From Nitrosopumilaceae archaeon (lineage in GTDB: Archaea > Thermoproteota > Nitrososphaeria > Nitrososphaerales > Nitrosopumilaceae), in NCBI GenBank assembly GCA_965200155.1, contig CBDATR010000010.1:416001-480000 (forward strand): a stretch of DNA of 64,000 nt, in the 5' to 3' direction. The translations under genes and the position numbers were made by a program. This document shows, in pieces, positions 3,603 to 51,903 of the stretch; positions within the stretch are counted from its first letter, which is position 1; the number at the start of each line of letters is the position of its first letter. A model generated the notes under the pieces. It searched no databases, was not told the origin of the DNA, and saw only the letters and a program-made list of their open reading frames with translations.

Positions 3603-4654
3603 GTATGGGTTCACCTGTGTCTAAATTTACGCATAACTGATGGAACCGGTTACCAGTTAATGTGATTTGTGCATAAGATTCCGGAAGTCAATAGTACGAA
3701 AAGTAAGTCCGCTTAGGATCCGGTGTACAGTAGTTCAGATTGCGCAAACCACGAAAGGCTATGGTAAATAGAATAACAGAGGAATCAAGACAAAAGAGGC
3801 GTTGCCGCTACCAAAATAGCTCAAGACCTGAAACAAGACACGTACGAAGATTGTGAACCAGAGGACGGGAACGACTCGAGTAAAGATAGGCAGGCTCATG
3901 ATACCAATCACCGCCACCCAGATACGAATGGTAACTGAAGCATACAGCAAGGATCCCGCCGGAGTAGTACGTATTGCAAAGAGGCTTAGACAGAATTACA
4001 ATATATCGCGCAGTATATCGCATAATGAAAAAGAACGGTACAGCAGGATCATCACCTGCAGAGTGGGTACGCTATGAGCGTAAATATTCCAATGCAATGT
4101 GGCACTGGCATGTCATGAAAGATGAGCGCTTCAGGGGACTGAATCTCATAGATGATGCATCCAGGTGTATAGTCGGAGCGGCACTATTTGAGCATGCAAC
4201 CTCAGAGAACGCCGTTCTATTACTGAGACTGGCAATGAAACGATTCGGCGCCACTGCATCTCGGATAACGGCGCGTGTTTCGTAGGACAATAAAAGGGCA
4301 AAAAGAACTGGAAACCCACACTATTCGAGGAAGAACTGCTGGATCAAGACATCATACTAATCAATTTCAGACCATACCACCCGCAGACAAATGGCAAACG
4401 GGGGCGCTTCCATGGAATGATTGAGGACGAGATATGGTATTATGACAGTCTCCGGGATTATGTGGACTACTACAATGAGAGAAGGTTGCACGTCTCACTG
4501 GATATAGATAACGGCGAAACGCCGCTTCAGGAATAAAAAGGCGACCCAGACAATTAGGGCAAATGATGCAAAATGGATGGAGCGGGATGCCAATGACTAG
4601 CGGACCGACTTTTCACACATTACACACAAGATTCCGGAAGACGTGAACTCATAC
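3603..4654 (+). mobile_element. 92-bp IS66-type MITE (variant core) split by an IS481 derivative
   Basis: GTATGGGTTCAC at 3603, GTGAACTCATAC ending 4654; TSD AAACTGAA at 3595-3602 and 4655-4662. Confidence 0.92.
3688..4624 (+). mobile_element. IS481-family derivative, copy 1 (transposase pseudogene)
   Basis: WVRYERKYSNAMWH..DDASRC..ATSENAV and HPQTNGK fragments; imperfect IRs TCAATAGTACGAAAAGT / ACTTTTCACACATTACA; 16-bp DR CAYAAGATTCCGGAAG. Confidence 0.88.
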
Positions 4655-4881
4655 AAACTGAATCGCTACCATTTGCCCACAAATATGATTATGGGTGATA
4701 TCATATGGAACGGGCGCTTGGTACACACACTCCATCATTTTGCGGGGTCTTACAGTGCCATTTTGTGCCGCATCTCGTGTTTTATTGAGTGATTTTTAAT
4801 TATTTATTATATTATTAATACTATGAATACTAACAATACTATGTAAGTAATGAATAATAACTATATCATCATACCATTATC

Positions 4882-5292
4882 ATGAAAATAGCCTTTGACA
4901 CATGCGTTGTAATAGACATAATGGAGAGCGCCTCGGTCGCCCGTAAACTGCGAACCAATCTTAGTGGCAAGCAATACAAGATAGTGCTGTGTCGCCAAGT
5001 ATTACGGGAGCTCAGACGGGTACATAACCTGACAGTTGATGCAATTCTTGGTAGCCTGCGCAAGATATTTGGTGAGAGACGCGTCGGCATAATATCGGAT
5101 CCCACAGATCTTGAGGATACCGCCCAAATGCTACGTAACCAGTATCACTATGCACATAATGGTGATCACCGCATTCTGGCCACGTGCCGCATACATGGAA
5201 TTGGCCTGATTACGCTTGATCGGGGAATGCTTAAGGTGGCCACCATGGTGGGAATTCCGGCATTTCACCCTAAATATGCAGGTGGGATATAA
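4882..5292 (+). CDS. PIN-domain (VapC-like) ribonuclease
   Basis: N-terminal FDTCVVI, ELRR, D-HRILA, LITLD motifs. Confidence 0.85.
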   Translation: MKIAFDTCVVIDIMESASVARKLRTNLSGKQYKIVLCRQVLRELRRVHNLTVDAILGSLRKIFGERRVGIISDPTDLEDTAQMLRNQYHYAHNGDHRILATCRIHGIGLITLDRGMLKVATMVGIPAFHPKYAGGI

Positions 5293-5406
5293 TGGCCAGG
5301 GCGTATCCGGTTATAGTACGATTTGACGATGACAACGAGGATCCCATGGTATATGGCAACTAGTTGATTACTCGCTAGGTATAATTTGGAAAAGGGCTCA
5401 TCCCGT

Positions 5407-5838
5407 ATGTTGGGCACAACCGAAGACAAGTCTGTTCACAAAGTGAGGGTCACAAAGTCCGTTGTAAAGTCTCTGCGTGAGGAGATTTTGCAGTATATGG
5501 ATGGTGGCGGATACCTGGCGTGGTCTGAGAAGGATCACAAGTACCTACTATTGGGTACTAACTCGCCCCGTACCGGTTTGGTGAACTGTCCGGAGTGCGG
5601 CATAGGGAGGCTTATGGTTATACGTTCACGCGCTACTGGCAAGCGCTTTATTGGCTGCTCCAACTATGCCCAAGGGTGTACTGCCACATCCCCGCTTCTG
5701 CAACGAGCCCGTCTACGCGCCATAAAACAGTCATGCCCGGAATGCGGATGGCCAATAGTACTGTTCAGGTATTCCAGAGATCAAAAATGGTCCCGGCAGT
5801 GCTCTAACATATCCTGCACTACCAGGAATAAAGGCTAG
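5407..5838 (+). CDS. topoisomerase I-type C4 zinc-finger domain protein
   Basis: CPECGIGRLMV..GKRFIGCSNY and a second CPECG..CSNISC repeat. Confidence 0.85.
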   Translation: MLGTTEDKSVHKVRVTKSVVKSLREEILQYMDGGGYLAWSEKDHKYLLLGTNSPRTGLVNCPECGIGRLMVIRSRATGKRFIGCSNYAQGCTATSPLLQRARLRAIKQSCPECGWPIVLFRYSRDQKWSRQCSNISCTTRNKG

Positions 5839-16403: not shown

Positions 16404-16504
16404 GTATGAGTTCACCTGTGTCTAAATGGAACGGGTCATTCTATAACTGATCGCGACAGTTAATGTGATTTGTGCACAAGATTCCGGAAGACGTGAACTC
16501 ATAC
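16404..16504 (+). mobile_element. MITE (variant with TGGAACGGGTCATTCT), no TSD
   Basis: TIRs present; flanks differ; abuts truncated IS66. Confidence 0.93.
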
Positions 16505-16909
16505 AATGGTTTTACTCTAGTTGTTCTATATAAGTACGGTCCTATACCCGGCAAAGACTTATGGTGGGCGCTATACATCCTGAATTTCTCCATAGACATC
16601 AATGATTGTTCTATATTTTATCATAATATATAGATATATATACAATTAAACTATGCAATATAAAACATGTAAATTAACAATAGTATGTGCAATATTGTGA
16701 CTTGGGCGTACTATTGCCAGGGACATGGGCGAATGTATTTACCATATTCGACTCGGCCATATTCTACTTCGGTAGCCCGCGTTCAGGTCATGTTTTATGA
16801 CGTCACAAATGCTCACGTTTGGATATCTGATCTTTTACTCGATCTAAACGGTTACACTCGGCAGAGTCTGATCGTGTATGATGTTGTCTCATTTCACGGT
16901 ATATGGAAA

Positions 16910-18363
16910 TTAATCTGGAGAAACAGGCGAGTTTGTTGCATAACTGACTTTGACAGAATACAGGTTCCCCATGTCGTAATCTACGTTGCTACCGCGTCCA
17001 CCCACTCGTTGTACTCGTATGTTATCCCATTTCCGCGCCATTAATCCGTGTCCGAATAATCGTTTGAACGGGAACCGGCTCTGATTATCTAGATTATCCA
17101 TCGCCTGTTGTACCCTTTTACCGCCTTCTAGGTATGAGTTCACGTGTTTTGATCATACGATGAAACTTGATATGACAATATTTGGTTAAATTGTAGTATG
17201 AGCAGACGCCGGCCATGAGGAACTGCAAATCTCCGGATACCCTTGCGTCTACCAAGAGAGATCTTGCACACTACAAGGAACGTGTAAGAAGCAGACATAA
17301 CATAGAAAAAATGCGTTTAGAAATTATGTAAATGAATTGGAAGGAAAACAAGGGAAAATTGCGGTAATCATGGCTCGGCTTATATGAGAATGCTCACTCT
17401 CCACCATCCCTCCAGTACAAGCATGAGGTTGCTATAAGAATGCAGTTATAATTAAAAAAACTCGGATGCATTCTATCATATCATATGATCAAAACACGTG
17501 AACTCATACCCTTCTAGTACTGCTTGTTTTTGGCCTTTTCCTCATCAGAAAGGCGGAAAATGGGCGATTCCGGGCTTCCTCCAAGACTGCAAGTCCCCAT
17601 GAGTCGCCTCTCCTTTGGTGGAATTTAGCTGAAGTGGAATGGTTGTTCGGATTCGATTATGACTGCACAATTTCATGTTATGCCTGGACGCGTATACTCC
17701 ATCTGCAAGCAACTCGAGGTTGCATGCGCGCTTGTCATCATTATTCGGTAAGGGGGACACACCGTTAGTCAGCGCGTTTCCGGGTGGTGACTTATCTGTT
17801 GATCCTGCCAGAGATGACAACTGTTGCAATGGGTCCGGAACTTTCCAATTCCAGGGTGTGCTCCCTGTCCAGTTGTGGCTCTTCTGCATACGAGCCCAGT
17901 ACTGCATTGTTTAACATGCGCGTATCCCCAACCCACTCGCCGGTAACCCTAAATGCATATGCTCTCCCAGTCCGCGAGCACTGATGAATCCGCGTCTCTT
18001 TTTCCATTTGGCTCTTATCCACTCACCACGATTCAGGGCCGGTCGAGTCCACAATCATTGGCCCTCGTCAGCTTTTTGTCTGTGCCGACAATCATGCCAT
18101 TCCCCTTGTTAATGTCAAGATCTTTTCCGCGTCTGTATATTGTGGAGTAGTGCGGGGTTTGATGCCCTTCTAGTAGTCCTGCAAGGAATCCGGATACCTG
18201 CCTGTATCTCATACCTAATGCCGTTCTCAGTATCATGTAACATGTCCACGACATACCGGTAGGGAGCACCCTCCTTGTTATGGTTGGCCTTTTCAATTCC
18301 ACGCATGATCAAAGCCAAATAGCCTTCCGCTGGACGTACTTGGCATTGTCGGTGAATACCATC
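16910..18363 (-). pseudogene. IS5-family (ISH1/IS903-like) transposase pseudogene
   Basis: Fragments KEGAPYRY, YRQVSGFL..PHYSTIYRR, LLADGVY, FKRLFG spread over several frames. Confidence 0.7.
17132..17509 (+). mobile_element. 378-bp internally deleted IS66 family-1 derivative
   Basis: Both long TIRs (GTATGAGTTCACGTGTTTTGATCA); TSD CCTTCTAG. Confidence 0.9.
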
Positions 18364-28062: not shown

Positions 28063-28154
28063 GTATGAGTTCACCTGTGTCTAAATTTACGCATAACTGA
28101 TCGTGACAGTTAATGTGATTTGTGCATAAGATTCCGGAAGACGTGAACTCATAC
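28063..28154 (+). mobile_element. 92-bp MITE, no TSD
   Basis: TIRs and core match consensus; flanks differ. Confidence 0.93.
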
Positions 28155-28327
28155 GCTGGTTTTCCTGCCTCAATTCCCCGTAGGTCAGGCGTCTGACCAT
28201 CATACACCACTTAAAAATTTGGTATTTAAGCACTCGGTCAATATTTAATTAAAACATATCAACTTTCACAATCTTCCGGAGAGATCGACCTATTTGAATC
28301 GTCTCCATTATGTTGAATAGTATTTTT

Positions 28328-28428
28328 GTATGAGTTCACCTGTGTCTAAATTTACGCACAACTGATGGAACAGGTTGTTCTAGTTAATGTGATTTGTGCA
28401 CAAGATTCCGGAAGATGTGAACTCATAC
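28328..28428 (+). mobile_element. MITE (variant with TGGAACAGGTTGTTCT)
   Basis: TSD GTATTTTT. Confidence 0.95.
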
Positions 28429-28667
28429 GTATTTTTAGCTTTAAACGTTACTTTTGAAATAATTAATTTGTCACTAGAAATCTAGATAATTAAGTCCACT
28501 AACACCATTTAAGTATTTAATTAAAAATTACTGTGTCTAGAAATATATGACAGTAAATATGTCTGAGTTTTAATTGCGCATATAACTTTAAAATTAAAAA
28601 TATTCTTAAGCATACCGGAATTTTAGCATATTGCAGATACCACTACATTTATTTCCTTATTGGACAC

Positions 28668-30759: not shown

Positions 30760-30817
30760 GAAAGGGAATATTCCTGTTTTGGCAATTATGTTTTTGCAGA
30801 TTATGCTTGTGCATGAA

Positions 30818-31618: not shown

Positions 31619-31759
31619 CGGATATTTATAATCGGTGTCATATTAAACGCCTTGCTCATACGGGATAATTTGCGCCCTAAATGACCGGGTCTGTCGGACA
31701 AGACCGGGGAGATTCAATCTATAAGATTCATAAAGCAAATAGACACAACACCAAAAAAC

Positions 31760-33490: not shown

Positions 33491-33992
33491 TTATAATGTC
33501 CTGTTTCTTCTGGGGATCTATATCTAGGGATTCTATATCCTTGATTATGCCATTTATCGCAGTCGGTGAAGCATCAAGTGTCTCTCGTCCAGCATGGGTG
33601 GTCTGGTAAACGCGCTGGACGCGATCAGTCCGCAGTGGATATGATACCACGTGACCCTCTTTTTGCAGTGTGTCCAAAGTATCCTGTACCTTGTCCTCTT
33701 CTAGGGTCATACACGCCGCAGTCTGGTACAGGGTCAGCGGCTGCACATCCAGTAACCGCAACAGGCGTGTACTTGTTGGCGTCTCCTCGCCCCATAGGTA
33801 ATTCCGGGCATCCTCGGTCAGCTCAAAGTGTTCTCCGCATCGAACTATAACATGTCTCTCCAGCATTGATGCTAGTTGGTCCATTATGCGCCCGGTGCTC
33901 ATCTTGGACAGATTTGACTGTGCAATGGCGTGCTCGTCAAGCTTGCCCTGTATGGCTAACAGGACAAAATCCAAATCTCCCTTTACCAGCAT
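33471..33992 (-). CDS. hypothetical protein, probably tandem wHTH
   Basis: ELTEDAR and YQTTHAGR wing-like motifs. Confidence 0.6.
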   Translation of the reverse strand: MLVKGDLDFVLLAIQGKLDEHAIAQSNLSKMSTGRIMDQLASMLERHVIVRCGEHFELTEDARNYLWGEETPTSTRLLRLLDVQPLTLYQTAACMTLEEDKVQDTLDTLQKEGHVVSYPLRTDRVQRVYQTTHAGRETLDASPTAINGIIKDIESLDIDPQKKQDIITRLKNL

Positions 33993-34061
33993 GTTTTTGT
34001 ATATTTGTGACTGTTATAAATTGCCTGCATTACGATTCCACTCTGCTCAGGTAAACAACAC

Positions 34062-34478
34062 TTAGTTTACCGAAATTACGGTAAATTTTTTCACGTCCAG
34101 GGCGTTCTGCGAATACAAGCCATCCCACAGAAAGACATCCACCGTGTATGTACCTGGTGCATGGGGTGTCCAGGAGACTGCAATGTCCAGCTGCTGACCT
34201 GTGTCCACCTCGCCACCAAACCATTTCAGTAATACTATGGTGTCATTATGATCAGTTACCTGCACTATGTACACAAATTCCTGACTGGGGGATGTATCAT
34301 TAGATATGGTGGATGATATGTAGATCTTTTGGTTGGCGTTAACGTGATCTATTATGGGTACCCCGATGGCGTCCACCAGTATTGGCGATGCCATCTCCGC
34401 ACCATACGCAATGGCGCCTCCCAACACGAATATGGATAATATGGCTATTTGTATCAACATAAGCGGGGTATACATGTG
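34062..34478 (-). CDS. secreted Ig-like (CARDB-like) hypothetical protein
   Basis: Signal peptide; YIVQV..SWTP..GTY..FLW; start uncertain. Confidence 0.7.
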   Translation of the reverse strand, partial: HMYTPLMLIQIAILSIFVLGGAIAYGAEMASPILVDAIGVPIIDHVNANQKIYISSTISNDTSPSQEFVYIVQVTDHNDTIVLLKWFGGEVDTGQQLDIAVSWTPHAPGTYTVDVFLWDGLYSQNALDVKKFTVISVN

Positions 34479-34619
34479 CCACATAATATGTCTGATGGGT
34501 ATTGATACTGTGTGATTTGCAACCTGATCGTGGAATATTATATCAATGCATGCCTGCACCAGTTATCTGGGTCGATTACAAACAACATTTATGACATGTC
34601 TGTACGTTGAATCAGAATA

Positions 34620-35381
34620 ATGTCGCTCATATTAGTGGATGTCCAGGATGGAATTTGTACTGTAACAATCAACCGACCGGACAAACTTAATGCAATGAAC
34701 ACTGATGTAGCGCGGGAATTAATTGCGACCTTTGAGAAGGCTGGTGCAGATGATAGTATTCGCGTAATAATTCTGACCGGTCAGGGTAACAGAGCATTCT
34801 CTGCCGGGGCGGACATCAAATACATGTCTACCATAAGTCCCGAGGAGTCTGTAACATATGCTAAACTGGGTCAGCTTGTGACTAACACTATCGAACAAGT
34901 ACCCCAGCCTACCATTGCAGCGGTAAACGGTTTTGCACTGGGCGGTGGTTGCGAAGTGGCCATGTCCTGTGACATACGTATAGGTTCAGAAAAGGCAAAA
35001 CTAGGCCAGCCTGAGGTAACCATTGGAATACCTCCAGGATGGGGTGGTACCCAAAGACTCATGAGAATAGTGGGAATTGCCAAAGCCAAAGAGTTGGTGT
35101 ATACCGGCAAGACGATTGCTGCACAAGAGGCCTTGAGTATAGGACTGCTTAACGGGGTTGTACCACCAGATTCACTGATGGATGAGGTCAAAAAAATGGC
35201 TCAGATCATAATCGCAAACTCATCTATGGGTGTGCAAATGTCCAAAGTTGCCATAAATCGCGGACGTAACACTGATCTTGACACAGGCTTGTCCATTGAG
35301 CTGCTGGCTTGGCGTAACTGCTTTACGCATTCGGATCGAGAGACCATGATGAATGCGTTTCTGCAACGATCCAAAAAGTAA
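34620..35381 (+). CDS. enoyl-CoA hydratase (probable crotonyl-CoA hydratase / 3-hydroxypropionyl-CoA dehydratase)
   Basis: [41 protein letters not shown]. Confidence 0.92.
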
Positions 35382-35605
35382 GAATTCTTGTCAGGTTTTT
35401 TTCATAATATGGCCGTCGCTATGTGTACCGGTATACTTTCACGTCTTGCAGGCACGATCATAATCTCGTACGCGTATTTTTGATCCGGTGAACTATTGCA
35501 TACTATTCTGAGTCCAAATTGGACGCGCATAAGCTAAGGAGAACGGTATGCTCTGGACCAATATCTAGAACAACACTTTTAGCCAAAAAATACGCAGTGT
35601 TATTG

Positions 35606-36295
35606 TTGGCAACAAAGTGGCTAAAACAGTATGGAATACCCGGCAAACTCATTGTGGTGGAAGGTATAGATGGCTCCGGTAAGTCTACCCAGCTTCGATT
35701 GCTGGAAAAATGGCTTCGCTTCAACAAATTGGATGTATTTCTGACCGAGTGGAACTCGTCGTTTATGGTTAAATCCATAACCTCCAAGGCCAAAAAGAAA
35801 ACCACCCTTACCCCTACAACCTTCAGTCTATTACATGCCACTGATTTTGCAGATCGCTTTGAGCGCAACATAATGCCGCTTCTCCGAGCAGGTTACTTTG
35901 TTCTGGCAGATAGGTACGTCTATACCGCGTATGCGAGAGATGTAACTAGGGGTTGTAGGCCGACATGGGTGCGTAAGGTGTATGACTTTGCATTAAAACC
36001 TGATATTGCATTCTACTTTCGCGTTCCCATAGACGTATCAATGGAGCGTATACTGACTGGCAGACCCAAGCTCAAGTATTATGAGGCTGGCATGGATCTG
36101 GGCCTGAGTAAGAGCGAATATGAGAGCTACCGTATATTTCAAAGTAGAATAATACACCAGTATGAACTAATGCGGGAAAGGGAAAATTTTGTAATTATTG
36201 ATGCAGCCCTTGACATAAAAAAACAGCAAAACATTATGCGTGATATAGTAAAACAAATAGTAAATGTGAAAACGCTGGATGAGGAGGAAGTGTAA
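35606..36295 (+). CDS. tmk: thymidylate kinase-like protein 1
   Basis: EGIDGSGKST, ADRY; start set at TTG. Confidence 0.85.
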   Translation: MATKWLKQYGIPGKLIVVEGIDGSGKSTQLRLLEKWLRFNKLDVFLTEWNSSFMVKSITSKAKKKTTLTPTTFSLLHATDFADRFERNIMPLLRAGYFVLADRYVYTAYARDVTRGCRPTWVRKVYDFALKPDIAFYFRVPIDVSMERILTGRPKLKYYEAGMDLGLSKSEYESYRIFQSRIIHQYELMRERENFVIIDAALDIKKQQNIMRDIVKQIVNVKTLDEEEV

Positions 36296-36990
36296 TGTCA
36301 AATTCCCGTGTGCCAAAGTGGTATGGCCAAAGCATACATGATATCAAGATAAATGGCAGGCTCATAGTGATTGAGGGTCCTGATGCATCAGGCCGCAGCT
36401 CACAAATTGAAAGACTGACCACCCGCTTGGAGGCAGACGGTTTTGCGGTACTGAACACCGGCCTGAAACGTTCTGCACTGATTGGCGCTGGCATCCTGGA
36501 AGCCAAGCGTAACATAACATTGGGTAAGCGTACCATTGCTTTATTCTACGCTGCGGACTTTGCGGATCAGCTGGAGCACAAGATAATCCCTGCCTTGCAA
36601 GCCGGTTACGTGGTATTGGCGGATCGTTATATCTACACCCTGATAGCCCGCAACACAATACGCGGCATACGTCGCCTGTGGTCCTCCAACTTGTATGGCT
36701 TCGCCTTGGTACCGGATCTGGTGTTTTATCTTGATGTGGATCCATTCAAGCTGGTTCATAGGGTCTTTGAGAAACACAAGCAGCTGGATTATTATGAATC
36801 CGGCGCCGATATGGGACTCTCAGATGATATGTTTGAATCATTCATAATGTACCAGCAAAAATTGGCTCAGGAGTTTAAGGCACTAAAGAAAAAGTATGGT
36901 CTCGTATCAGTAGATGGTAATAGATCATCAGATCAGGTCTACGAGACTTTGGAAGAGCGTATACGCGAATATTTGGCGCAAGACCGATAA
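36295..36990 (+). CDS. tmk: thymidylate kinase-like protein 2
   Basis: EGPDASGRSS, ADRY; TAATG coupling with the previous gene. Confidence 0.82.
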   Translation: MSNSRVPKWYGQSIHDIKINGRLIVIEGPDASGRSSQIERLTTRLEADGFAVLNTGLKRSALIGAGILEAKRNITLGKRTIALFYAADFADQLEHKIIPALQAGYVVLADRYIYTLIARNTIRGIRRLWSSNLYGFALVPDLVFYLDVDPFKLVHRVFEKHKQLDYYESGADMGLSDDMFESFIMYQQKLAQEFKALKKKYGLVSVDGNRSSDQVYETLEERIREYLAQDR

Positions 36991-37053
36991 CTGCGCATGT
37001 GTCTGGATTTTATAACATCCGCGTAAATCATTGTAATTTATTCTTAAAAATTT

Positions 37054-37145
37054 GTATGAGTTCACCTGTGTCTAAATTTACGCACAACTGATCGCGACAG
37101 TTAATGTGATTTGTGCACAAGATTCCGGAAGACGTGAACTCATAC
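37054..37145 (+). mobile_element. 92-bp MITE
   Basis: TSD AAAAATTT. Confidence 0.95.
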
Positions 37146-37347
37146 AAAAATTTGGCTCAATGAGTGCATTGTATTATTGGTGAAGTTTATACAAAAAATT
37201 GAATTTTTATGTTCTAATTACATGGCGTCTGCATTAGTGTGGACTTCTGGTTTCGCTGTATATGAAACAGTGTTGTATAAGCGCAAAAACTCGGCTATAC
37301 TCAAATTACAATAACAATTAAAACCTGATGTTAGCTAATACATGCTA

Positions 37348-37421
37348 GGGCCCGTAACTCAGCTTGGTAGAGTAACCGACTCATAATCGGTGAGCCGCGG
37401 GATCGAAGCCCACCGGGCCCA
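37348..37421 (+). tRNA. tRNA with CAT anticodon, probably tRNA-Ile2 (alternatively elongator Met)
   Basis: Acceptor GGGCCCG/CGGGCCC-A, D stem ACTC/GAGT, anticodon arm ACCGA-CTCATAA-TCGGT, T loop ATCGAAG; GGGCCC start is typical of archaeal Ile2. Confidence 0.9.
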
Positions 37422-37524
37422 CTACAATATTTTAAATCACGACATACACTGCAATGTGTGGCAGCAATGAGGAATCAGAGTTATACCTGATATGTGATGA
37501 GAAGGCATTTGACTGAGCTGCCAA

Positions 37525-38157
37525 TTACCAACGTGGTTCGTATACCATGACCACTTTGCCGTCTTTTATGGTAAATCCCATGGTGGCCAGCGTGGTTCTA
37601 GACGTGGAACTATTGCGCTCTAGTATTTTTTGCGCTATCTCTTTCCGTAATTTTGAATTCATATGTTGCCCTATCTTGTATTTGCCCCTTATCTCTGATG
37701 GTATGAGCTTGATCACTGCGGTGTGTTTTAGCGCTTCATCGCCCTGTTGCATGGGTGCATAGCCTCCCTCAGGCTGATACTTGGTCATTAGCCCATTGAG
37801 TGCAAGGCACTTCTCTGTTTCATCTTCCACCAAGTATGCCTGCCCCTTCATAACCACGCTAACATAAAGCGTGTCTGCCACGGAGGCATCAGTTGGATGA
37901 GTGAAGTATGATGGCAGAAACTCTAACTCCTGATCAACCTCGAAACCTGCCAAGGGACTGCGCTTCATATTGTCCAGCTTCTCGCCTCTTGTGTGTGAGT
38001 GCATGTATATGATACCGCCTAGAAAAGCGTAATTCATTGGTATTATTTGAGGAAAACCATTTTTGTCTATGGTGGCAATGCGGCCAACGTGCTGTGTCTC
38101 CAAAAACTCGGCAATTATACGGGATGATTTCATCTCCAGCTTGCCAAGCAGTTGCAT
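37525..38157 (-). CDS. pyridoxamine 5'-phosphate oxidase-like flavin-binding protein (NimA-like)
   Basis: VGRIAT..PQIIPMNY, HS..GEKL, YVSVVMKG, GKYKIGQ. Confidence 0.85.
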   Translation of the reverse strand: MQLLGKLEMKSSRIIAEFLETQHVGRIATIDKNGFPQIIPMNYAFLGGIIYMHSHTRGEKLDNMKRSPLAGFEVDQELEFLPSYFTHPTDASVADTLYVSVVMKGQAYLVEDETEKCLALNGLMTKYQPEGGYAPMQQGDEALKHTAVIKLIPSEIRGKYKIGQHMNSKLRKEIAQKILERNSSTSRTTLATMGFTIKDGKVVMVYEPRW

Positions 38158-38179
38158 ACTTTGGATAATATGATCTTGT

Positions 38180-38413
38180 CTATAAACTGTCTTTATGGGT
38201 ATTTTGTCGCCAAGCAAAACTGTCTTCCGCTAGCCGTATGCGACTTGACTCCGCAGCGTCTTCTACCATGTCGTACAAGTTATGGAGACTTGCAGGTTTT
38301 ATTGCCTCTTCTTCTCTAATACACAATTGAATGTCTTGCAACGTGTTTATGGCATTGTCAACTATGTGGTTAGTCTCGGCCATGAGATCGGCCCAGTCAT
38401 GTTTGCCCATCAC
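38180..38413 (-). CDS. hypothetical protein
   Basis: 77-aa ORF coupled to the upstream LLM gene. Confidence 0.55.
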   Translation of the reverse strand: MMGKHDWADLMAETNHIVDNAINTLQDIQLCIREEEAIKPASLHNLYDMVEDAAESSRIRLAEDSFAWRQNTHKDSL

Positions 38414-39510
38414 TTTGCTGTCTGTTCATGGAGGTATGGCATTACGTGATTTGCAAACTTGTCTATGGATCCCAGATACTCCTTGCCCCAGAATCTAATG
38501 ACAAAGTGTGTAACGCCAGCCTTTAGGAATCTCTCAAAGGTGGGTATGATATCATCTGGTGTGCCTATGGCGGTAGAGGAGCGTGCTATTGAATCGGGCA
38601 GCTTTGTTGCCGCCTCTCTCATGCGTACTATCCAATCAGAGTCTGACATGGAATACTCGGTAAAGTATTTTCTAAAGTCGAAACCCTCTATCTGTTTCAG
38701 GTTATGTACCCGTAGAATCTCTGGCTTAAACAGGCTTACCTTTACCGCTTCCTTCATCTTTGCCCATGATAGCTCAGCATCTTCGGAAAAGTAAACGTCA
38801 ATGTCCAGTGCCCATTCGAACCGTTCTCTCTCCTCTTTGGGACGGTCGTTCTTGTCCATTGATGCCACTATTTGTTGGCGATGATCCTCGAAGAGTTCTG
38901 GCGTATACCCTATGGGCAGCCACCCATCTCCAAGCTTACCTGTCATTGCCAGTGTGCGCTTTCCTCCCGCTGCCATGTAGGTGGGTATACGAGGCTTGCG
39001 TATTGGTGGTGCTTGCAGGCATGCTGATCGCAGTTGGTAAAACTTGCCTTCATAGTCTACAGTATTATCCGGATTTGAATTATACAATTCATGAATCACC
39101 TCTATCTGCTCTTCCCATTTACTGACAGGACTAACAAATGGTATGCAGAACTCCTTGAGGTTCTGAGCCTCGCCTGCACCTATGCCCAGTATGGCTCGAC
39201 CTTCCGAGATTCTATCTAGCGTAATGGCTGCTAGTGCTATGTTGGATGGGTGCCTACGTATGGCATCTGTAACACAGGTGCCTAGCTCCACGTTCTTTGT
39301 TAGCGCTGCAATTGCTGACAACATGACCCATGGATCCAACACGATGGCCTTCTTCCACTGGGGAACGTTTGTGTGATCCATGTAGAATATGGAGTCGTAC
39401 CCCGTCTTGTCGGCTAACATACACGCGGTCAATATGCGCTCTTCGTTGTAACCTGCACGAGCTACATTAAGTCCATTCTGTATGCCAAATTTTATTTTTT
39501 TAGACGCCAA
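38410..39510 (-). CDS. LLM-class (F420/flavin-dependent) oxidoreductase
   Basis: DPWVMLSAIA, LGTCV, TLDRISEGRAILGIGAG, GDGW, GTPDD. Confidence 0.92.
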   Translation of the reverse strand: MASKKIKFGIQNGLNVARAGYNEERILTACMLADKTGYDSIFYMDHTNVPQWKKAIVLDPWVMLSAIAALTKNVELGTCVTDAIRRHPSNIALAAITLDRISEGRAILGIGAGEAQNLKEFCIPFVSPVSKWEEQIEVIHELYNSNPDNTVDYEGKFYQLRSACLQAPPIRKPRIPTYMAAGGKRTLAMTGKLGDGWLPIGYTPELFEDHRQQIVASMDKNDRPKEERERFEWALDIDVYFSEDAELSWAKMKEAVKVSLFKPEILRVHNLKQIEGFDFRKYFTEYSMSDSDWIVRMREAATKLPDSIARSSTAIGTPDDIIPTFERFLKAGVTHFVIRFWGKEYLGSIDKFANHVMPYLHEQTAK

Positions 39511-39765
39511 CGTATTGAAGCAGTGTATACTGTATTTAAAAAGCTTCTTTGTGTCTGCTAATTTCTCATACACTCTACAAAATGGGTCTATCGGGATATT
39601 GACGGTAACAGAAGGGTGTGTTTGGTAAAGGGGTATTTTATATTACACAAATCAACAAATACAGCAAGGTACTTGTACCAAAAATTCATCCTTTATGTGT
39701 TGGGTGAACTCAGCTATATCTTGGAATATGACGGTTTTCCCCAAGTCTTGGAGAGTAAATTCTTT

Positions 39766-39857
39766 GTATGAGTTCACGTCTTCCGGAATCTTATGCACAA
39801 ATCACATTAACTGTCGCGATCAGTTATGCGTAAATTTAGACACAGGTGAACTCATAC
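39766..39857 (-). mobile_element. 92-bp MITE
   Basis: TSD AATTCTTT. Confidence 0.95.
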
Positions 39858-40027
39858 AATTCTTTCATTATGCTTAAATTTCCACAAATTGGGCCAGGCA
39901 CTGCATGTATATGCTTTGGTTTAGGTAGGCATTCCTGTATTATGTGGTATAAAAAAGTCAAAAATGGATATTCCAGCATTAATACAATTATAATAATCGT
40001 ATCTGTCTACGTTTTTGAAGTGATATT

Positions 40028-40053
40028 GTATGAGTTCATCTATGTCTAAATTT
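40028..40053 (+). mobile_element. left part of an older MITE; the rest resumes at 42212
   Basis: GTATGAGTTCATCTATGTCTAAATTT ... CTAAATTTACGCACGACTG. Confidence 0.75.
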
Positions 40054-40145
40054 GTATGAGTTCACGTCTTCCGGAATCTTGTGCACAAATCACATTAACT
40101 GTCGCGATCAGTTGTGCGTAAATTTAGACACAGGTGAACTCATAC
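40054..40145 (-). mobile_element. 92-bp MITE replacing the left end of an eroded IS66
   Basis: Left flank CTAAATTT recurs at 42212 after the IS66 right end. Confidence 0.93.
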
Positions 40146-40380
40146 ACATAGAGTGTACCGCCGGTTTGATGACGGTGGGAAGCACCAGCTGGGCGCATTT
40201 ATTAGACCTTATGCGCATGATTGACAGTAACAGCCCATGTTGCTTCAAACTGGGGTGTATTTTATGGCACACAATCCGTCAAGCATGAACAATGTGAATG
40301 GCACCTGCCAGCACTAACGTATGTCGTGTAGTGGGGTAACCGGATCTTGATGAAGTATATCGGAAGTGAGCTAAACGGTT

Positions 40381-40479
40381 GTATGAGTTCACCTGTGTCT
40401 AAATTTACGCACAACTGATAGAACCGGTTACCAGTTAATGTGATTTGTGCACAAGATTCCGGAAGACATGAACTCATAC
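40381..40479 (+). mobile_element. MITE (variant TAGAACCGGTTAC), no TSD
   Basis: TIRs present; lies in the IS5 3' non-coding part. Confidence 0.93.
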
Positions 40480-40534
40480 CATTAATTTAGTGGATTTTCT
40501 GATGAGTAATATTCGAATTATAATAACACGGAAA

Positions 40535-41701
40535 TTATGGACAGATATTTTTCAAGAATTTCTTGTACCTGGTATGCTTGTGCATAATGTGTAAATTATG
40601 CAACCCAGATACTACGAGTAGATCTTCCCGGAATTCCTCACGACTGCCATCATATACCTGACTTAATCTACGATATACCTTTAGCATTCGAATTACATTC
40701 TCGATTAATATGCGCCTTTTTGATACATATTGGTTGTATTTCCTTTCAGTTTTAGTGAGTGATTCCCTACCCCTGTATGGAATTATGACCTTTGCGCCGG
40801 GTAGGAAGTCTTTCATACCCTGGTATCCTGCATCTGCTATTACTGTTATCTTATCGGATGGTGGCGTGGTTGATTCTTTTAGGGACTTGCCCCATTTGCC
40901 ACCGAGGGGAATATCATTCTTGAATATACCATAATCGTGTCTTTTTCCCTCATATACTCCACTTACGTGAATTATCAGTCTTTTCTTGTTTGATGTTATC
41001 TGTACGTTATACGTGTGGGTTTTTTGTTTACCAGAGTACATTGCCTCCTGATTTTTTTTAGGACGTTGTACGCGTACATGTGTCCCGTCAGTCTTTATCT
41101 CCCCTCCGGCTCGGCCTGGAACAATTTCCTTAAAGTCGGGTGTTGACTTGATTTGTGATATTGCTTTTGCAACGGTATCTGCCGTTGGAAGTATCTTGAT
41201 CAGTCCCTGCTTTGTAAACTGGATGTAACGGCATATGTTTGACTGGTTTATCTTGAGTATTGCTGCCAGCAGCTCCTGCTTTGTATTGCAGCGCAGGCGT
41301 ATCAGTGTAACTAAGAGTACATGCCTGACCGGAAATTTGTTCACATGGCCGCGATCATTTGTAAGTTCTAAGAATCGCCGTGCATCATCGCCTTCCAGGG
41401 ACTCTACGTATTCTGTGAATCTGGTTAGTATCCATTTGAACTCTTCCGGGGTGCATCCGGTCAGGGAATGAAGCTGATCCTTGCGTTCTATGATGTCATC
41501 AAGATTTGAAACGAGGGCATTCTTTGTTTGAGCTTCAAGTTTGGCGTGCAGGTTTGTTACTTCGGCCTCGGACCTGGTGCGTAGCCGGTAGTACTCTGTG
41601 ACTAACTGCTCCCTGGTGAGTTCTTCTGCTTTTAGCATACCTGGTATTACAAAATTAGGTCTTAACTTTTCTGTTTCACACGAGTCTGTGGGAAAACCCA
41701 T
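40535..41701 (-). CDS. IS5-family DDE transposase (DDE_Tnp_4-like), apparently intact
   Basis: HTH QELLA..INQSNICR; TDGT, YSGKQKTH, HD, ADAGYQG, RILIEN. Confidence 0.9.
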   Translation of the reverse strand: MGFPTDSCETEKLRPNFVIPGMLKAEELTREQLVTEYYRLRTRSEAEVTNLHAKLEAQTKNALVSNLDDIIERKDQLHSLTGCTPEEFKWILTRFTEYVESLEGDDARRFLELTNDRGHVNKFPVRHVLLVTLIRLRCNTKQELLAAILKINQSNICRYIQFTKQGLIKILPTADTVAKAISQIKSTPDFKEIVPGRAGGEIKTDGTHVRVQRPKKNQEAMYSGKQKTHTYNVQITSNKKRLIIHVSGVYEGKRHDYGIFKNDIPLGGKWGKSLKESTTPPSDKITVIADAGYQGMKDFLPGAKVIIPYRGRESLTKTERKYNQYVSKRRILIENVIRMLKVYRRLSQVYDGSREEFREDLLVVSGLHNLHIMHKHTRYKKFLKNICP

Positions 41702-42384
41702 GATACTAGGTCAATTGTTCGTATCTAACAACTTGGTTTAGACGTGCAGGGTGGGAGAAGTGATTCTGCGCATACGGTCTATTGCGCGATACCCAGATTG
41801 CAGGATTCTATATTGATCCCGGTGCTCAGGACGCCCGGATCAAACTTGACAACGATTTGATCCGGAGCGCATGTGAATCGCTGTGGGCCGTCCGCGCAAA
41901 TTGAGGCAGGAGCAGAATCCATTCTACATTAATGATACTGAACTACAGAAGGGATTGAATAAAGGCATGTTCGTATTCCTATATGTGGAGCCCACCAATA
42001 GAGCAGTGGAACCGGTTCTGATACGCAGTGGTATTCCGGAAACATTAGTGGTTAGATAAAGGGTGTAATGCGCCGCATGTCCATATGTGTTCAGACATGG
42101 GGGGCTCAGGGCCTTTCTGTAATGAACGAGGTTGCTGCCAGAATGCAATTATAATTAAAAAACTTGGATGCATTCTATCTTATTATGTGATCAAAACACG
42201 TGAACTCATACCTAAATTTACGCACGACTGGTAGCCGCGGTTAAATGTTTGAGAACGTGGTTGGGGAATACATGATCTCATACAGTCACTTGAGGGTGAG
42301 CAGGGCTTCCGTACTGGAATATGCACAAGACATGCAGTATAAGGAACATGGATTTCTATCACTACCGCGATATACTACGAATCC

Positions 42385-42476
42385 GTATGAGTTCACGTCT
42401 TCCGGAATCTTATGCACAAATCACATTAACTGTCGCGATCAGTTATGCGTAAATTTAGACACAGGTGAGCTCATAC
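42385..42476 (-). mobile_element. 92-bp MITE
   Basis: TSD ACGAATCC. Confidence 0.95.
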
Positions 42477-42946
42477 ACGAATCCCACTTCAAAAATCTAG
42501 ACAGATACTAACAATCTATTACGTCAGGCGTAAAAATTCAAAGGTTCTACATGCAGGCTGAGTAGTCTACTAAATCTGGGAAACAGCTTTGCCCAAACTA
42601 CCATAAAATATCAATGCGCGCACCACTTTGGTGTGATGGGATGTTTCGGGGAACAGCGCAGTCACTCTCAGGCAAGCCTGGGGCAGCCTGCCTCACACCA
42701 CTTCGGCGGTTTTCTATCCACCAGGCCCGGCGCGCTCAATTTGTTGAAGATGGATTTTGATGATTTCCCGTAAAAAACTGAGTCATTCTTAAATCTGTCG
42801 CCGTACCAAGTAGTAGATTTGCTTCAACATTCACCTAAGTTACGACTTTAACAAGTTAGTGGGGACATGGACTCATGCTGTATCGTGGATTAGTTGTACA
42901 TCACACATAGTATGTGTTTTCCTCCATTCATAATGAACCTAATTTA

Positions 42947-43038
42947 GTATGAGTTCACCTGTGTCTAAATTTACGCATAACTGATCGCGACAGTTAATGT
43001 GATTTGTGCATAAGATTCCGGAAGACGTGAACTCATAC
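42947..43038 (+). mobile_element. 92-bp MITE
   Basis: TSD CTAATTTA. Confidence 0.95.
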
Positions 43039-45482: not shown

Positions 45483-47177
45483 GTATGAGTTCACGTGTTT
45501 TGATCACATAATAAGATAGAATGCGTCCCAGTTTTTTTAATTATAACTGCATTCTGGCAGCAACCTCGTTCATAACAGAAAGGCCTTGAGCCCTCCATGT
45601 CTGAACACATGATACAAATGTAGACATGCGGCGCATTGCCCTTTCGCCACCCTTTATCTGACCACTAATCTTGCGGAATACCACTGCGTATCGCAAAGCC
45701 TGCTCCGCTGGATTGTTGGTGGGCTCTACACAGTCATATTCTAAGAATACGAACATGCATGGTATGGCCTTATTCAATCCTTTTACCTTCTTTTGTAGTT
45801 CAGTATCATCAACATCACAGTACTGATGCAGAATGGATTCTGCTCCTGCCTCAAATGAGTGTCGTAATTGCGCGGACGGCCCGCAGTGATTCAGGGATTC
45901 CCGTGCGCTCCGGAACAATCCTTTCAGGTCGTTGTCAAGTTTGATCCGGGCGTCCTGAGCACCGGGATCGATATAGAATCCTGCATGTAATGCCTGGGTA
46001 TCGCGCAATAAATGCGCCCAACACAACTGGTGCTTCCCACCGTCATCAAACCGGCGGTACACAACGTACCTGTCTGTGACTATCGCGCCCTGGTAACCGT
46101 TCGGGTATTTGTTCACTACATTTGAACTCCTACTTTTGTCATATATGGACATCATCCACTCTTCGGCCCGCATCCCCCATACCCAGCCACGCCTACCCGC
46201 CAGTGATATACCAGTTTCGTCCACATGAATGCTGGGTGATTTTATTATATTCTCATGAATTGTTTCCATAAATGATTCACATGCATCGGCGGCCCTGGCA
46301 ATTATGTTGTTTACTGCACCCACCGATATATTTAGGCCGAAGAGATCCCTCGAAATTACAGGTATGCGTTTTATTGGAATCTTTTCCGCACGCAATGCAG
46401 TGATGGCACCGCATAATTGAACCCCAAAACTACCACTCTTTGGGACGCCCGCTGCTGGGGCCAGTTGTTTTTTGCCGCACTTGCATGCAGCCATTTCTAT
46501 CACATGAAGGGTCTCCTCTATTTTGGCTGGTATTAATTCCGTTATGTGTCGTTGTTTCCAACCAATTTTTGTCATCATATTGCCGCACTCACATAGTGGA
46601 GTATGCTCAAAGGTGTGATGCACTACTCTGCCGGGGTTGTGGGAACGGGAAACCCCCTTGTGTCCCTTTTGCGCGCCAGCCTTTTTGGCTGATTTCGTAC
46701 TGGCTTCTGTCTGTTGCTTATTATCTCCCTGTTTTCGCTTCTGTTCCTCCTGTTTTCGCTTCTTGTACTGGAGGGATTGAAGGGATGGTGGCGAGTGAGC
46801 ATTCTCATAATATTTAAGTCGCGTTGTGAGTACCGCAATTTTCCTGTCTTTTTCTACTAATTCCTCTTTTAATTCACTTACATAATTTCTAATAATTTGG
46901 AAATCTTGTATATGATTTCGTATTTCTTTTATGGTGTGTGACATATATGCTTCCAATACTCTCACACGTTCCTTGTAATGTGCAAGATCTTTCTTGTAAT
47001 CCTCAATATCTTTCTTGATAGACGCAAGGGTATCCTGAAGAAGTTTATTTTCCAGTTCCAATTCCTTATAGGACCGGCGTCTTCTCATTAGATTCTTATT
47101 GCAAATTTGGTATTTAAGTAAAATATTGCCATACCAATCTATATCTTAGTGAATGATCAAAACACGTGAACTCATAC
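45483..47177 (-). mobile_element. full-length single-ORF IS66 (ISBst12-like) element, family 1
   Basis: 24-bp TIRs GTATGAGTTCACGTGTTTTGATCA; 1695 bp; no matching TSD. Confidence 0.93.
45541..47088 (-). CDS. IS66-family transposase (TnpC-like), apparently intact
   Basis: Coiled coil, NAHSPPS, GAQKGHKG, Zn knuckles, HVDETG, TDRY, QLCWAHLLR, PTNNPAEQALR. Confidence 0.93.
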   Translation of the reverse strand: MRRRRSYKELELENKLLQDTLASIKKDIEDYKKDLAHYKERVRVLEAYMSHTIKEIRNHIQDFQIIRNYVSELKEELVEKDRKIAVLTTRLKYYENAHSPPSLQSLQYKKRKQEEQKRKQGDNKQQTEASTKSAKKAGAQKGHKGVSRSHNPGRVVHHTFEHTPLCECGNMMTKIGWKQRHITELIPAKIEETLHVIEMAACKCGKKQLAPAAGVPKSGSFGVQLCGAITALRAEKIPIKRIPVISRDLFGLNISVGAVNNIIARAADACESFMETIHENIIKSPSIHVDETGISLAGRRGWVWGMRAEEWMMSIYDKSRSSNVVNKYPNGYQGAIVTDRYVVYRRFDDGGKHQLCWAHLLRDTQALHAGFYIDPGAQDARIKLDNDLKGLFRSARESLNHCGPSAQLRHSFEAGAESILHQYCDVDDTELQKKVKGLNKAIPCMFVFLEYDCVEPTNNPAEQALRYAVVFRKISGQIKGGERAMRRMSTFVSCVQTWRAQGLSVMNEVAARMQL

Positions 47178-47621: not shown

Positions 47622-47958
47622 AAAAGGATTGAATAAGGCCATACCAGGCATGTTCGTATTCTTAGAATATGACGGTGTGGAGCCCACCAACAATCCAGCG
47701 GAGCAGTGGAACCGGTTCTGATACGCAGTGGTATTCCGCAAGATTAGTGGTCAGATAAAGGGTGGTGAAAGGGCCATGCGCCGCATGTCCATATGTGTTC
47801 AGACATGGAGGGCTCAGGGCCTTTCTGTAATGAACGAGGTTGCTGCCAGAATGCAATTATAATTAAAAAACTGGGATGCATTCTATCATATTATGTGATC
47901 AAAACACGTGAACTCATACCTATATCTTAGTGAATGATCAAAACACGTGAACTCATAC

Positions 47959-49126: not shown

Positions 49127-49167
49127 CTACTGCCAAATCATATGTCTCATTATACATCTAATGTTTT

Positions 49168-49485: not shown

Positions 49486-50743
49486 ACCCGGATACTACGA
49501 GTAGATCTTCCCGGAATTCCTCCCGACTGCCATCATATACCTGACTTAATCTACGATATGCCTTGAGCATACGTATGACATGCTCGATTAATATGCGCCT
49601 TTTTGATACAGTTTTGTTATATTTCCTTTCAGTTTTAGTGAGTGATTCCCCGCCCTTGTATGGAATTATGACCTTTGCGCCGGGTAGGAAGTCTTTCATC
49701 CCCTGGTATCCTGCATCTGCGACTACTGTTATCTTATCAGATGGCGGCGTGGTTGATTCTTCTAGGGACTTGCCGCCAAGGGGAATATCATTCTTGAATA
49801 TGCCATAATCGTGTCTTTTCCCCTCATATACTCCACTGACGTGAATTATCGTATGAGTTCACCTGTGTCTAAATTTACGCATAACTGATCGCGATAGTTA
49901 ATGTGATTTGTGCATAAGATTCCGCAAGACGTGAACTCATACGAATTATCAGTCTTGATGTCATCTGTAAGTTGTACGGGTGGGTTTTTTGTTTACCAGA
50001 ATACATTGCCTCCTGATTTTTTTCAGGACGTTGTACGCGTACATGTATCCCATCAGTCTTTATCTCCCCTCCGGCTCGGCCTGGAACAATTTCCTTAAAG
50101 TCGGGTGTTGACTTGATTTGTGATATTGCTTTTGCAACGGTATCTGCCGTTGGAAGTATCTTGATCAGTCCCTGCTTTGTAAACTGGATGTAACGGCATA
50201 TGTTTGACTGGTTTATCTTGAGTATTGCTGCCAGCAGCTCCTGCTTTGTATTGTAGCGCAGGCGTATCAGTGTAACTAAGAGTACATGTCTGACCGGAAA
50301 TTTGTTCACGTGCCCGCGATCATTTGTAAGTTCTAAGAATCGCCGTGCATCATCGCCTTCTTCCAGGGACTCTACGTATTCTGCGAACTGGTTAGTATCC
50401 ATTTGAACTCTTCCGGGGTGCATCCGGTCAGGGAATGAAGCTGATCCTTGCGTTCTATAATGTCATCAAGATTTGAAACGAGGGCATTCTTTGTTTGAGC
50501 TTCAAGTTTGCCACGCAGGTTTGTTACTTCGGCCTCGGTGCGTAGCCGGTATTACTCTGTGACTAACTGCTCCTTGGTGAGTTCTTCTGCTTTTAGCATA
50601 CCTGGTACTACAAAATTAGGTCTTAACTTTTCTGTTTCACACGAGTCTGTGTGGGAAAACCCATGATACTAGGTCAATTGTTCGTATCTAACAACTTGTT
50701 TTAGACGTGTAGGGTGGGAGAAGTGATTCTGTGCATACGGTCT
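49486..50743 (-). mobile_element. IS5-family copy 2 (pseudogene, 3'-truncated)
   Basis: Aligns with copy 1; frameshifts, 6-9 bp deletions and a MITE insertion. Confidence 0.9.
49851..49942 (+). mobile_element. 92-bp MITE inside IS5
   Basis: TSD GAATTATC. Confidence 0.95.
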
Positions 50744-50786
50744 ATTGCAGCATACAAGTTAAATATTCTATATAGGTAGATTAAAT

Positions 50787-50939
50787 ATGGAGATTGCCAT
50801 GCAAAAAAAGTTTGGTAGTATGCAAAGTTGTCAATGTGGCATATGCGGTCATCGTAATGCAGAAGAATGTGTAAAGAATGAATGTGTCTGTTGTCTTAAT
50901 TTTCACGTACGCTCAGGACCGGGCAGACGTGATCACTAG
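50787..50939 (+). CDS. Cys-rich microprotein
   Basis: MEIAMQKKFGSMQSCQCGICGHRNAEECVKNECVCCLNFHVRSGPGRRDH; start uncertain. Confidence 0.55.
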   Translation: MEIAMQKKFGSMQSCQCGICGHRNAEECVKNECVCCLNFHVRSGPGRRDH

Positions 50940-51174
50940 ACCATTACGGCCAGATACTAGACTCGATGATTATGTTGTACAACATCCCCAAACTTAGAGA
51001 TGTATGTAATAGACTAGAGGCAGAGAACTTTTCATACTGCCAGTAATAATGCCCATACATAGATTGTAATTGTTAATGGGGTGCGCCATCACATGGAGTT
51101 TGTGAGCGCAAGATGTGCCAGTCTGTATTTAGTGCCAAGAGACAGGGGGATGCACAAAGCCATACCCAACAGGC

Positions 51175-51903
51175 GTATGAGTTCACGTGTTTTGATCATT
51201 CACTAAGATGTATAGATTGGTATGACAATATTTTGCTTAAATACCAAATTTGCAATAAGAATCTAATGAGAAGACGCCTGTCCTATAAGGAATTGGAACT
51301 GGAAAATCAGATTCTTCAGGATACCCTTGCGTCTACCGAGAAAGATCTTGCACATTACAAGGAACGTGTGAGAGTATTGGAAGCATATATTTCACGCACC
51401 ACAAAAGAAATACGAAATCTCACACACGATTTCCAAATTATTAGGAATTATGTAAATGAATTGAATGAGAAATTAGAAGAAAAACAGGGGAAAATTGCGG
51501 TAATCACAACGCGACTTAAATATTATGAGAATGCTCACTCGCCGTATGAATTCACGTCTTCCGGAATCTTATGCGCAAATCACATTAACTGTCGCGATCA
51601 GTTATGCGTAAATTTAGACACAGGTGAACTCATACTGTTCGTATTCCTAGAATATGACAGTGTGGAGCCCACCAACAATCCAGCGGAGCAGTGGAACCGG
51701 TTCTGATACGCAGTGGTATTCCGCAAGATTAGTGGTCAGATAAAGGGTGGTGAAAGGGCCATGCGCCGCATGTCATATGTGTTCAGACATGGAGGGCTCA
51801 GGGCCTTTCTGTAATGAACGAGGTTGCTGCCAGAATGCATTTATAATTAAAAAACTGGGATGCATTCTATCTTATTATGTGATCAAAACACGTGAACTCA
51901 TAC
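51175..51903 (+). mobile_element. IS66 family-1 derivative with its centre replaced by a MITE
   Basis: Both long TIRs; transposase N-terminal part to 51543, resumes at 51636. Confidence 0.9.
51544..51635 (-). mobile_element. 92-bp MITE at a deletion junction, no TSD
   Basis: Matches consensus. Confidence 0.93.

Follow-up and report, generated by a model that had tools for sequence, protein, structure and literature searches.

How does one short palindromic oligomer come to replace unrelated bases at several distinct sites of transposable elements, and by what route is it carried through a genome? The question is raised by a 64,000-nt stretch of DNA (the window), positions 416001-480000 of contig C10 in the metagenome-derived assembly (2.38 Mb, 51 contigs, 87.6% complete) of a sponge-associated Nitrosopumilaceae archaeon. 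Two studies have sponge-metagenome runs in which the window sequence is present. Its proteins have their nearest matches in Nitrosopumilaceae (approximately 50% identity for an M1 peptidase), and repeated 16-mers constitute 31% of the genome. Genome-wide comparison of a miniature inverted-repeat transposable element (MITE), here termed MITE-1, and of related repeats establishes that the pattern is real, genome-specific and unusual: palindromic cassettes that extend hairpins mark IS66-type elements and spread through them. About 200 copies across the genome bear such a cassette, and these are real and inherited.

Cassettes in MITE-1, in an IS66 element and in other repeats

MITE-1 is a 91-92-nt quasi-palindrome of IS66 type with the terminal inverted repeat GTATGAGTTCAC. 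We delimited 574 copies genome-wide and aligned the 568 short ones to their consensus; all class counts are based on these. The target is symmetric (aGCw-N8-wGCt), with an AT-rich 8-bp centre that becomes the duplication, and is unrelated to the cassette motif. Perfect 8-bp duplications flank 331 of the 568 copies and 237 have no recognisable one. Unmodified copies number 417, and 144 carry a self-complementary cassette of 12-18 nt at four positions, designated A, B, C and D; the remaining seven display ordinary single-copy deletions or other changes. Alignment to the 417 unmodified copies reveals that each cassette stands in place of 4-7 bases and is not flanked by a duplication, which bears out the original prediction: at several separate sites a stereotyped, self-complementary oligomer has genuinely taken the place of other bases. 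All indel classes of MITE-1 with at least two copies are of this motif type.

In class B1 (69 copies) the central-loop sequence CGCGAC is replaced by the 15-mer GGAACAGGTTGTTCT, and in class B2 (19 copies) central-loop CGCGA is replaced by a 12-mer. Class C occurs on its own in 41 copies, where TGTGA has become AGAACCGGTTCT or a point variant thereof. The A lineage comprises 15 copies in which TTACGC has given way to a 15-mer, cassette A; in 12 copies of this lineage cassette D has enlarged the palindrome TTCCGGAA into a 16-bp palindrome. The centres of C and D were later replaced in the A lineage by a GTAACCGGTTAC core, generating the forms C', C'' and D'. The lineage is stepwise, leading from C to A+C (4 copies), A+C+D (1), A+C'+D (5), A+C''+D (2) and A+C''+D' (2). 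There is no singleton cassette class, single-copy forms being point variants of class C and one A-only copy.

The cassettes share a design, RGAAC-CG-GTTCY or RGAAC-N5-YTTCT, with the GTAACCGGTTAC core in later versions. One side of every cassette reads RGAAC-N-GGT and the other ends in YTCT, TTAC or TTCC; lengths are 12, 13, 15 or 18 nt and the half-sites are spaced by 2 or 5 nt. Sites A and C flank the central stem TAACTG/CAGTTA symmetrically at its foot, the loop of that stem is site B and the centre of TTCCGGAA is site D, while the later replacements (C', C'', D') struck the centres of earlier cassettes. C and D each make up a perfect 16-bp palindrome once their flanks are included; the B1 cassette folds as its own stem at the hairpin apex, and naturally occurring copies have cassette A paired with C' across the MITE-1 hairpin. 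From the unmodified to the A/C' form the folding energy shifts from -29.5 to -47.9 kcal/mol for RNA and from -15.0 to -23.4 kcal/mol for DNA. Each event has increased the self-pairing of the element, the gain in self-complementarity that a template switch would give.

Within the window, an unmodified reference copy in the 91-92-nt form lies at 37054..37145 (+). The B1 copy at 28328..28428 (+) bears its cassette at 28367-28381 and the B2 copy at 40381..40479 (+) has CGCGA replaced by AGAACCGGTTAC at 40420-40431. The copy at 16404..16505 (+), with TTACGC replaced by GGAACGGGTCATTCT at 16428-16442, is the sole MITE-1 of the genome that contains A without C; elsewhere A accompanies C-type cassettes (14 copies). 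A further copy (3603..4654, +) contains the B2-like cassette GGAACCGGTTAC at 3642-3653 and is interrupted at approximately 3687-4624. The window contains the word GAACNGG 49 times where 24.2 would be expected, and none of 100 shuffles reaches that number. All seven sites listed at the outset (3642, 16428, 28367, 40420, 42007, 47707 and 51692) read as then described. The original prediction had, however, counted three to four independent events among these instances and noted that all read on the plus strand. Each belongs instead to one of the genome-wide classes, and genome-wide there is no strand bias (B1 35+/34-, B2 10/9, C 17/23).

MITE-1 has its terminal repeat in common with an IS66 element of 1673-1694 bp, which is likely to be its autonomous partner. 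The 515-aa transposase of this element is encoded in the window at 45541..47088 (-; DDE_Tnp_IS66, 7.2e-38) by a gene without cassette, in which GAACCGG is absent. In 30 of the 52 IS66 copies that cover the relevant region, GCTTTGC is replaced by TGGAACCGGTTCT (cassette E). Three IS66 fragments of the window carry this replacement, at 42007..42019, 47707..47719 and 51692..51704 (all +); in the third, the frame 51113-51706 stops at a TGA formed directly behind the cassette. The intact transposase reads ...NNPAEQ ALRY... (508 aa) and the cassette form ...NNPAEQ WNRF stop (457 aa), cassette E cutting the protein just after the conserved NNxAE motif; the DDE_Tnp_IS66 match spans profile positions 14-277 in the former and 14-264 in the latter. 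Pairs of IS66 copies with identical flanking haplotypes differ in the cassette alone, and other IS66 indels are likewise mosaic. On whether the IS66 cassette site is homologous to sites A/C of MITE-1, a hand alignment and a MAFFT alignment disagree.

Repeats other than MITE-1 and IS66 contain the motif as well. Family F7 harbours a replacement of the same type (GGTATCG to AGAACCGGTTAC) and family F5 probably holds one too. In family F4 the motif-like GGGAACCGGCTCT at 17066..17080 (+) of the window is native: an inverted repeat of the AGAAC...GTTCT type occupies this position in all 30 aligned members, even the diverged ones, so that the similar scar proposed at 17070 is an old feature of the family and not a replacement. 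Two other proposed scars, at 4706 and 56943, lie in single-copy DNA, in which the motif is no commoner than chance, and match it weakly. The latter, ATGGAACCTACCAGT at 56941-56955, resembles a B2-type cassette with its flank minus three bases and is probably due to chance. In family F3, which encodes TnpB, AACCGGTT is native just after the zinc-ribbon match; approximately 20 TnpB genes have such a look-alike after the zinc-ribbon match, followed by a GGGGAAC-N-GTTCCCC hairpin. The TnpB-only elements, also numbering approximately 20 (for example C10:368300-370300, C10:38900-40900 and C9:57100-59100), yield 20 zinc-ribbon and 17 OrfB_IS605 matches and are mostly broken; one copy ends beside a tRNA-like GGTTCAAATCC word. 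A second IS66-type/MITE family (for example C10:520080-520221, C9:168006-168146 and C24:82706-82843) has the tips GTAACCGTTTAGGTC (GTAACCG...CGGTTAC), 8-9-bp duplications, approximately 140 copies and approximately 285 matching ends. When its two 7-nt tips are overlapped at CG they yield GTAACCGGTTAC, which is the core of C''/D' and the right half of B2. Extended words are also common to different sites: ATAGAACCGGTTAC is found in B2 and F7, TGGAACCGGTTC in D and 39 IS66 copies, and AACCGGTTACTA in C'' and 24 TnpB-element sites.

How specific is the motif to this genome? The word GAACCGGTTC occurs 113 times, against 8 for its reversed word, which together with other control words was the control for motif counts; its counts in nine congeneric genomes are 1-10, those of the control 0-14. 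Of the 113 occurrences, 109 lie in repeats and four in single-copy DNA, where control words occur 0-8 times. MITE-1 was not found in the 30 relatives searched and gave 0 matches in a metagenome scan. The other abundant palindromes of the genome are mainly restricted to one context each and display no presence/absence polymorphism. No description of such cassettes was found among the papers listed for the 10-mer, judged by title, or among those listed for thaumarchaeal sponge symbionts together with MITEs. Contigs of four runs from two studies match the single-copy parts of window 28000-43000 at depths of 31-85. The B1, B2 and E sites of this region are free of reported indels in these contigs, which also contain C-type cassette words. 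One of the four runs may be the source of the assembly itself.

Inheritance and spread

Are the cassettes scars produced in place again and again, as originally proposed? Each class is common to 2-69 copies, at different loci and with different flanks, and none is seen once, which argues against repeated scarring in place. With each class handed down in this way, origin events are few, approximately 8-10. The carriers behave as subfamily markers would, with a variant present at many loci and surrounded by the target duplications of each copy: the 144 carriers have perfect 8-bp duplications in 78 of 143 cases, against 250 of 417 unmodified copies (p = 0.28). In haplotype, too, the carriers could be a random draw from all MITE-1 copies. 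For the C/T haplotypes, the unmodified copies divide into CC 111, TT 141 and mixed 54, and the carriers (CC, TT and mixed) into 15, 23 and 12 for B1, 12, 17 and 4 for C, and 10, 5 and 1 for B2, which is about the proportions of the unmodified copies. Minor single-nucleotide polymorphisms are likewise common to carriers and unmodified MITE-1. The state of the cassette is uncoupled from the flanking variants and the haplotypes are mosaic, as in concerted evolution, a pattern that recurrent site-specific writing would give as well.

Carriers are also clustered along the genome. For B1, 25 of 69 copies have a nearest neighbour of their own class, where 8.4 would be expected (500 shuffles, maximum 22); for C, 12 of 40 do, with 2.8 expected. 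The 237 copies without duplication fit frequent recombination between MITE-1 copies. The distribution is reasonably explained by few origins, approximately 8-10 genome-wide, followed by transposition and short-patch gene conversion. The contrary possibility, that all variants trace back to one event through gene conversion, holds within each class but not between sites.

Origin of the cassettes

Based on these observations we tentatively favour a model in which the cassettes are heritable modules that originated as templated patches and spread by conversion and transposition. Approximately 8-10 times, a cassette made of RGAAC/GTTCY half-sites with a CG or 5-nt spacer, later with the GTAACCGGTTAC core, would have replaced 4-7 bases in IS66-type elements. 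Most of the sites lie at the loop or foot of short hairpins, namely the MITE-1 central loop, the positions beside the central stem, TTCCGGAA and the centres of earlier cassettes. After its rare origin, each cassette would be distributed in part by ordinary transposition but chiefly by short-patch gene conversion, with neighbouring copies and homologous arms as the preferred partners. Conversion might also be biased, in the manner of biased repair of palindromic heteroduplex, so that a hairpin-forming heterology escapes repair and is retained. The weakest step is the first: new cassettes may arise when hairpin-prone transposon DNA is repaired or replicated and a short patch is synthesised on a template. 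That template would be a different element already bearing a cassette, so that the same words at unrelated sites would be accounted for; copying between elements is favoured because extended words are common to look-alike sites and cassettes.

Several observations weigh against this model. No donor has identity spanning the junction of any cassette site, and outside MITE-1 there is no match of at least 12 nt across a cassette junction, the A and B1 15-mers being present in MITE-1 alone. An internal template, for which the original prediction had suggested a search, was not found either. Cassette A agrees with the complement of C' at 11 of 15 positions and is no clean copy of it. The cassette arms are unrelated to their flanks, so the classical template-switch test fails for the origins; the longest word of the B1 reverse complement within the element is 6 nt, as judged by eye. 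Neither the IS66 site nor the F7 site coincides with an obvious hairpin, the conversion bias is an assumption, and repeated site-specific writing could equally give the mixing of haplotypes. Moreover, short-read contigs end inside MITE-1, with the result that alleles at one locus are not comparable between samples.

Could a dedicated activity write the cassettes instead? A sequence-specific writer, whether nuclease, recombinase, transposase or guide/template RNA, might act at hairpin loops in IS66-type DNA, or the palindrome itself might be a mobile or homing unit. The same words are found at 5 MITE-1 sites, in IS66 and in other families, two later events placed the GTAACCGGTTAC core in the centre of earlier cassettes, and copies with identical 15-mers are divided between the two MITE haplotypes just as unmodified copies are. 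Such an activity would also fit a motif limited to this genome, in which other abundant palindromes are not presence/absence polymorphic. A candidate gene, however, did not emerge. There were 0 matches to Prim-Pol, Ku, Y1 transposase (PF01797) or serine recombinase, although absence from an assembly that is 87.6% complete is not proof; the PF01797 search found the family in six control genomes. The sole reverse transcriptase (C50:22300-22781) is split by a stop codon and has no motif nearby and no Rfam family within 5.5 kb. Reverse transcriptase and Prim-Pol genes were among those that the original prediction had proposed to look for. In addition, single-copy DNA contains the motif no more often than control words, the target sequences are without a common motif, and both cassette length and spacer vary. 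We regard as unlikely a mechanism, belonging to this archaeon or to one of its mobile elements, that recognises hairpin loops in transposon DNA and swaps the loop for a stereotyped self-complementary cassette, or its variant in which a 12-18-bp palindrome is the smallest known homing element and is carried through a repeat family by short-patch conversion.

Equally doubtful in our view is a second alternative, in which the palindrome is a selected cis-acting site that raises the success of the element as a binding site (for a transposase domain or a host factor, for example), as a structure or through transcript pairing, so that rare gains outgrow the rest. It would explain why all amplified indel classes of MITE-1 are of motif type, why B1, B2 and C separately reached 19-69 copies and why one lineage has three cassettes per copy. 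Native look-alikes at conserved places in unrelated elements (F4, and the TnpB elements beside the guide-RNA region) point in the same direction, as does the likeness of the half-sites to the inner MITE-1 terminal repeat (GTGAAC) and to the tip of the second family (GTAAC). Half-site spacings of 2 or 5 nt nevertheless suit a hairpin better than a dimeric protein site. Judged by intact duplications, carriers are no younger than non-carriers, and in IS66 the cassette carries a cost, truncating the transposase after NNxAE. Selection by itself, moreover, gives no mutation.

Nuclease escape is less probable than either. Unmodified sites (TCGCGA, TCCGGA and others) would be cut by a restriction or an RNA-guided nuclease, and resistant cassette alleles would spread because breaks are mended from resistant copies, which would explain their spread over all haplotypes; the approximately 20 TnpB nuclease genes could supply the cutting activity, and TTCCGGAA, which cassette D removes, is also the target of a site-specific insertion. 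Avoidance of the presumed sites is nonetheless not apparent in single-copy DNA, where observed/expected ratios are 0.94 for TCGCGA, 0.96 for TCCGGA, 1.03 for ACCGGT and 1.16 for CCGG. The flanks of three aligned TnpB elements have no match to MITE-1, and the stereotyped filler is not accounted for.

Somewhat more improbable still is the suggestion that the cassettes are excision footprints, in which transposon tips GTAACCG...CGGTTAC (or AGAACC, GGAACC) were left joined at CG microhomology. The original prediction had raised this possibility, and its observation that the CGGTTAC end matches a transposon terminus stands: a family of approximately 140 copies has exactly these tips, which overlap to give GTAACCGGTTAC. 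Other observations weigh against it. Cassettes are not flanked by a duplication and the target has lost 4-7 bases, C' has the look of a half-converted intermediate rather than a single footprint, and among the transposon tips found none corresponds to AGAAC or GGAAC, the most frequent half-sites. A scan for AGAACC and GGAACC tips with 6-10-bp duplications yielded the GTAACCG family only, the other matches being chance, parts of larger repeats or an inverted duplication. An assembly or sequencing artefact, conceivable for a 51-contig, 87.6%-complete metagenome assembly, is hardly credible given that each variant lies at dozens of loci with different flanks and that the cassettes are found in contigs of four runs from two studies, although one run may be the source.

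Known systems, implications and neighbouring features

How do these cassettes compare with systems already described? In P element and Tc1/mariner excision, short palindromic remnants of fixed design and variable centre are left between copies of the target duplication. The cassettes resemble them in being palindromic and in having in GTAACCGGTTAC a core equivalent to two tips of a resident family, but differ in that no duplication is present, bases of the target have disappeared and the majority of half-sites correspond to no tip. MITE subfamilies, BOX and ERIC are defined by internal diagnostic blocks and amplify separately. Here too internal blocks mark subfamilies that were amplified separately; unlike BOX and ERIC, one palindromic design occupies several positions of a single 91-nt element and recurs in the autonomous partner of that element and in other families. 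HIP1 of cyanobacteria is spread through genes and spacers, and the GC clusters of yeast mitochondria insert with target duplication and without replacing bases. Common to both cases and to the present one is a short palindrome in strong excess within a particular genome. Over-representation across the whole genome, genes included, is however not observed here, the motif being at chance outside repeats, and in contrast to GC clusters bases are replaced with no target duplication. REP/RAYT and IS200/IS605-derived palindromes need a Y1 (HUH) transposase, for which there are 0 PF01797 matches in this assembly.

Another comparison is offered by template switching, which copies neighbouring sequence in reverse complement and creates or perfects hairpins in one step (Monttinen and Loytynoja 2022, PMC8794818). 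The cassettes are similar in that one complex event swaps a few bases for a different number and makes or extends a perfect stem, and cassette A opposite C' behaves as a multi-base compensatory change. They are different in that the new arms are foreign to the flanks and the same words recur at unrelated sites. Template switching covers the trend towards more pairing but leaves the foreign recurrent words unexplained.

What are the implications of these cassettes? Even as mere subfamily markers spread by conversion they would provide an unusually clean natural record of hairpins growing in a transposon family, and would illustrate the speed at which repeats, 31% of this symbiont genome, are mixed by short-patch conversion. 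If a writer or a homing micro-palindrome were at work, it would represent a new mode of DNA editing at hairpin loops. It would also add a new layer of conflict among mobile elements, as the IS66 transposase is truncated and the target of another insertion sequence is removed; the cassette that truncates the transposase could then act as a brake on the transposon. The system is tractable: a single genome contains copies with and without a cassette, and accessible sponge samples are rich in the organism.

The insertion sequence whose target is lost is the one that interrupts the MITE-1 copy at 3603..4654, a decayed rve-type (IS481-like) element with a 12-15-bp duplication that ends in TTCCGGAA. 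Elements of this type, approximately 940-980 bp long and in both orientations, lie at the same point in four MITE-1 copies, just behind TTCCGGAA (window 3687-4624; C13:40897-41983, C43:8758-9825 and C43:33825-34902). The element looks like a site-specific parasite of MITE-1, and cassette D abolishes its TTCCGGAA target.

Targeting of MITE-1 by TnpB was also considered and found no supporting evidence: the F3 site is native and the three TnpB flanks are without a MITE-1 match. Outside the window, thirteen tandem 39-bp units at C10:386959-387428 each contain AGAACCGGTTGT and probably represent a repeat in a protein-coding gene. Many contigs below 10 kb (C2-C4, C6, C11, C14-C18 and others) have a G+C content of 36-41%, compared with 47% in the large contigs, and may be plasmids, viruses or another organism. 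Finally, GCCGGC is strongly avoided in single-copy DNA (105 seen against 386 expected, 0.27; the next is CTCGAG at 0.59), which suggests a restriction system for that site.

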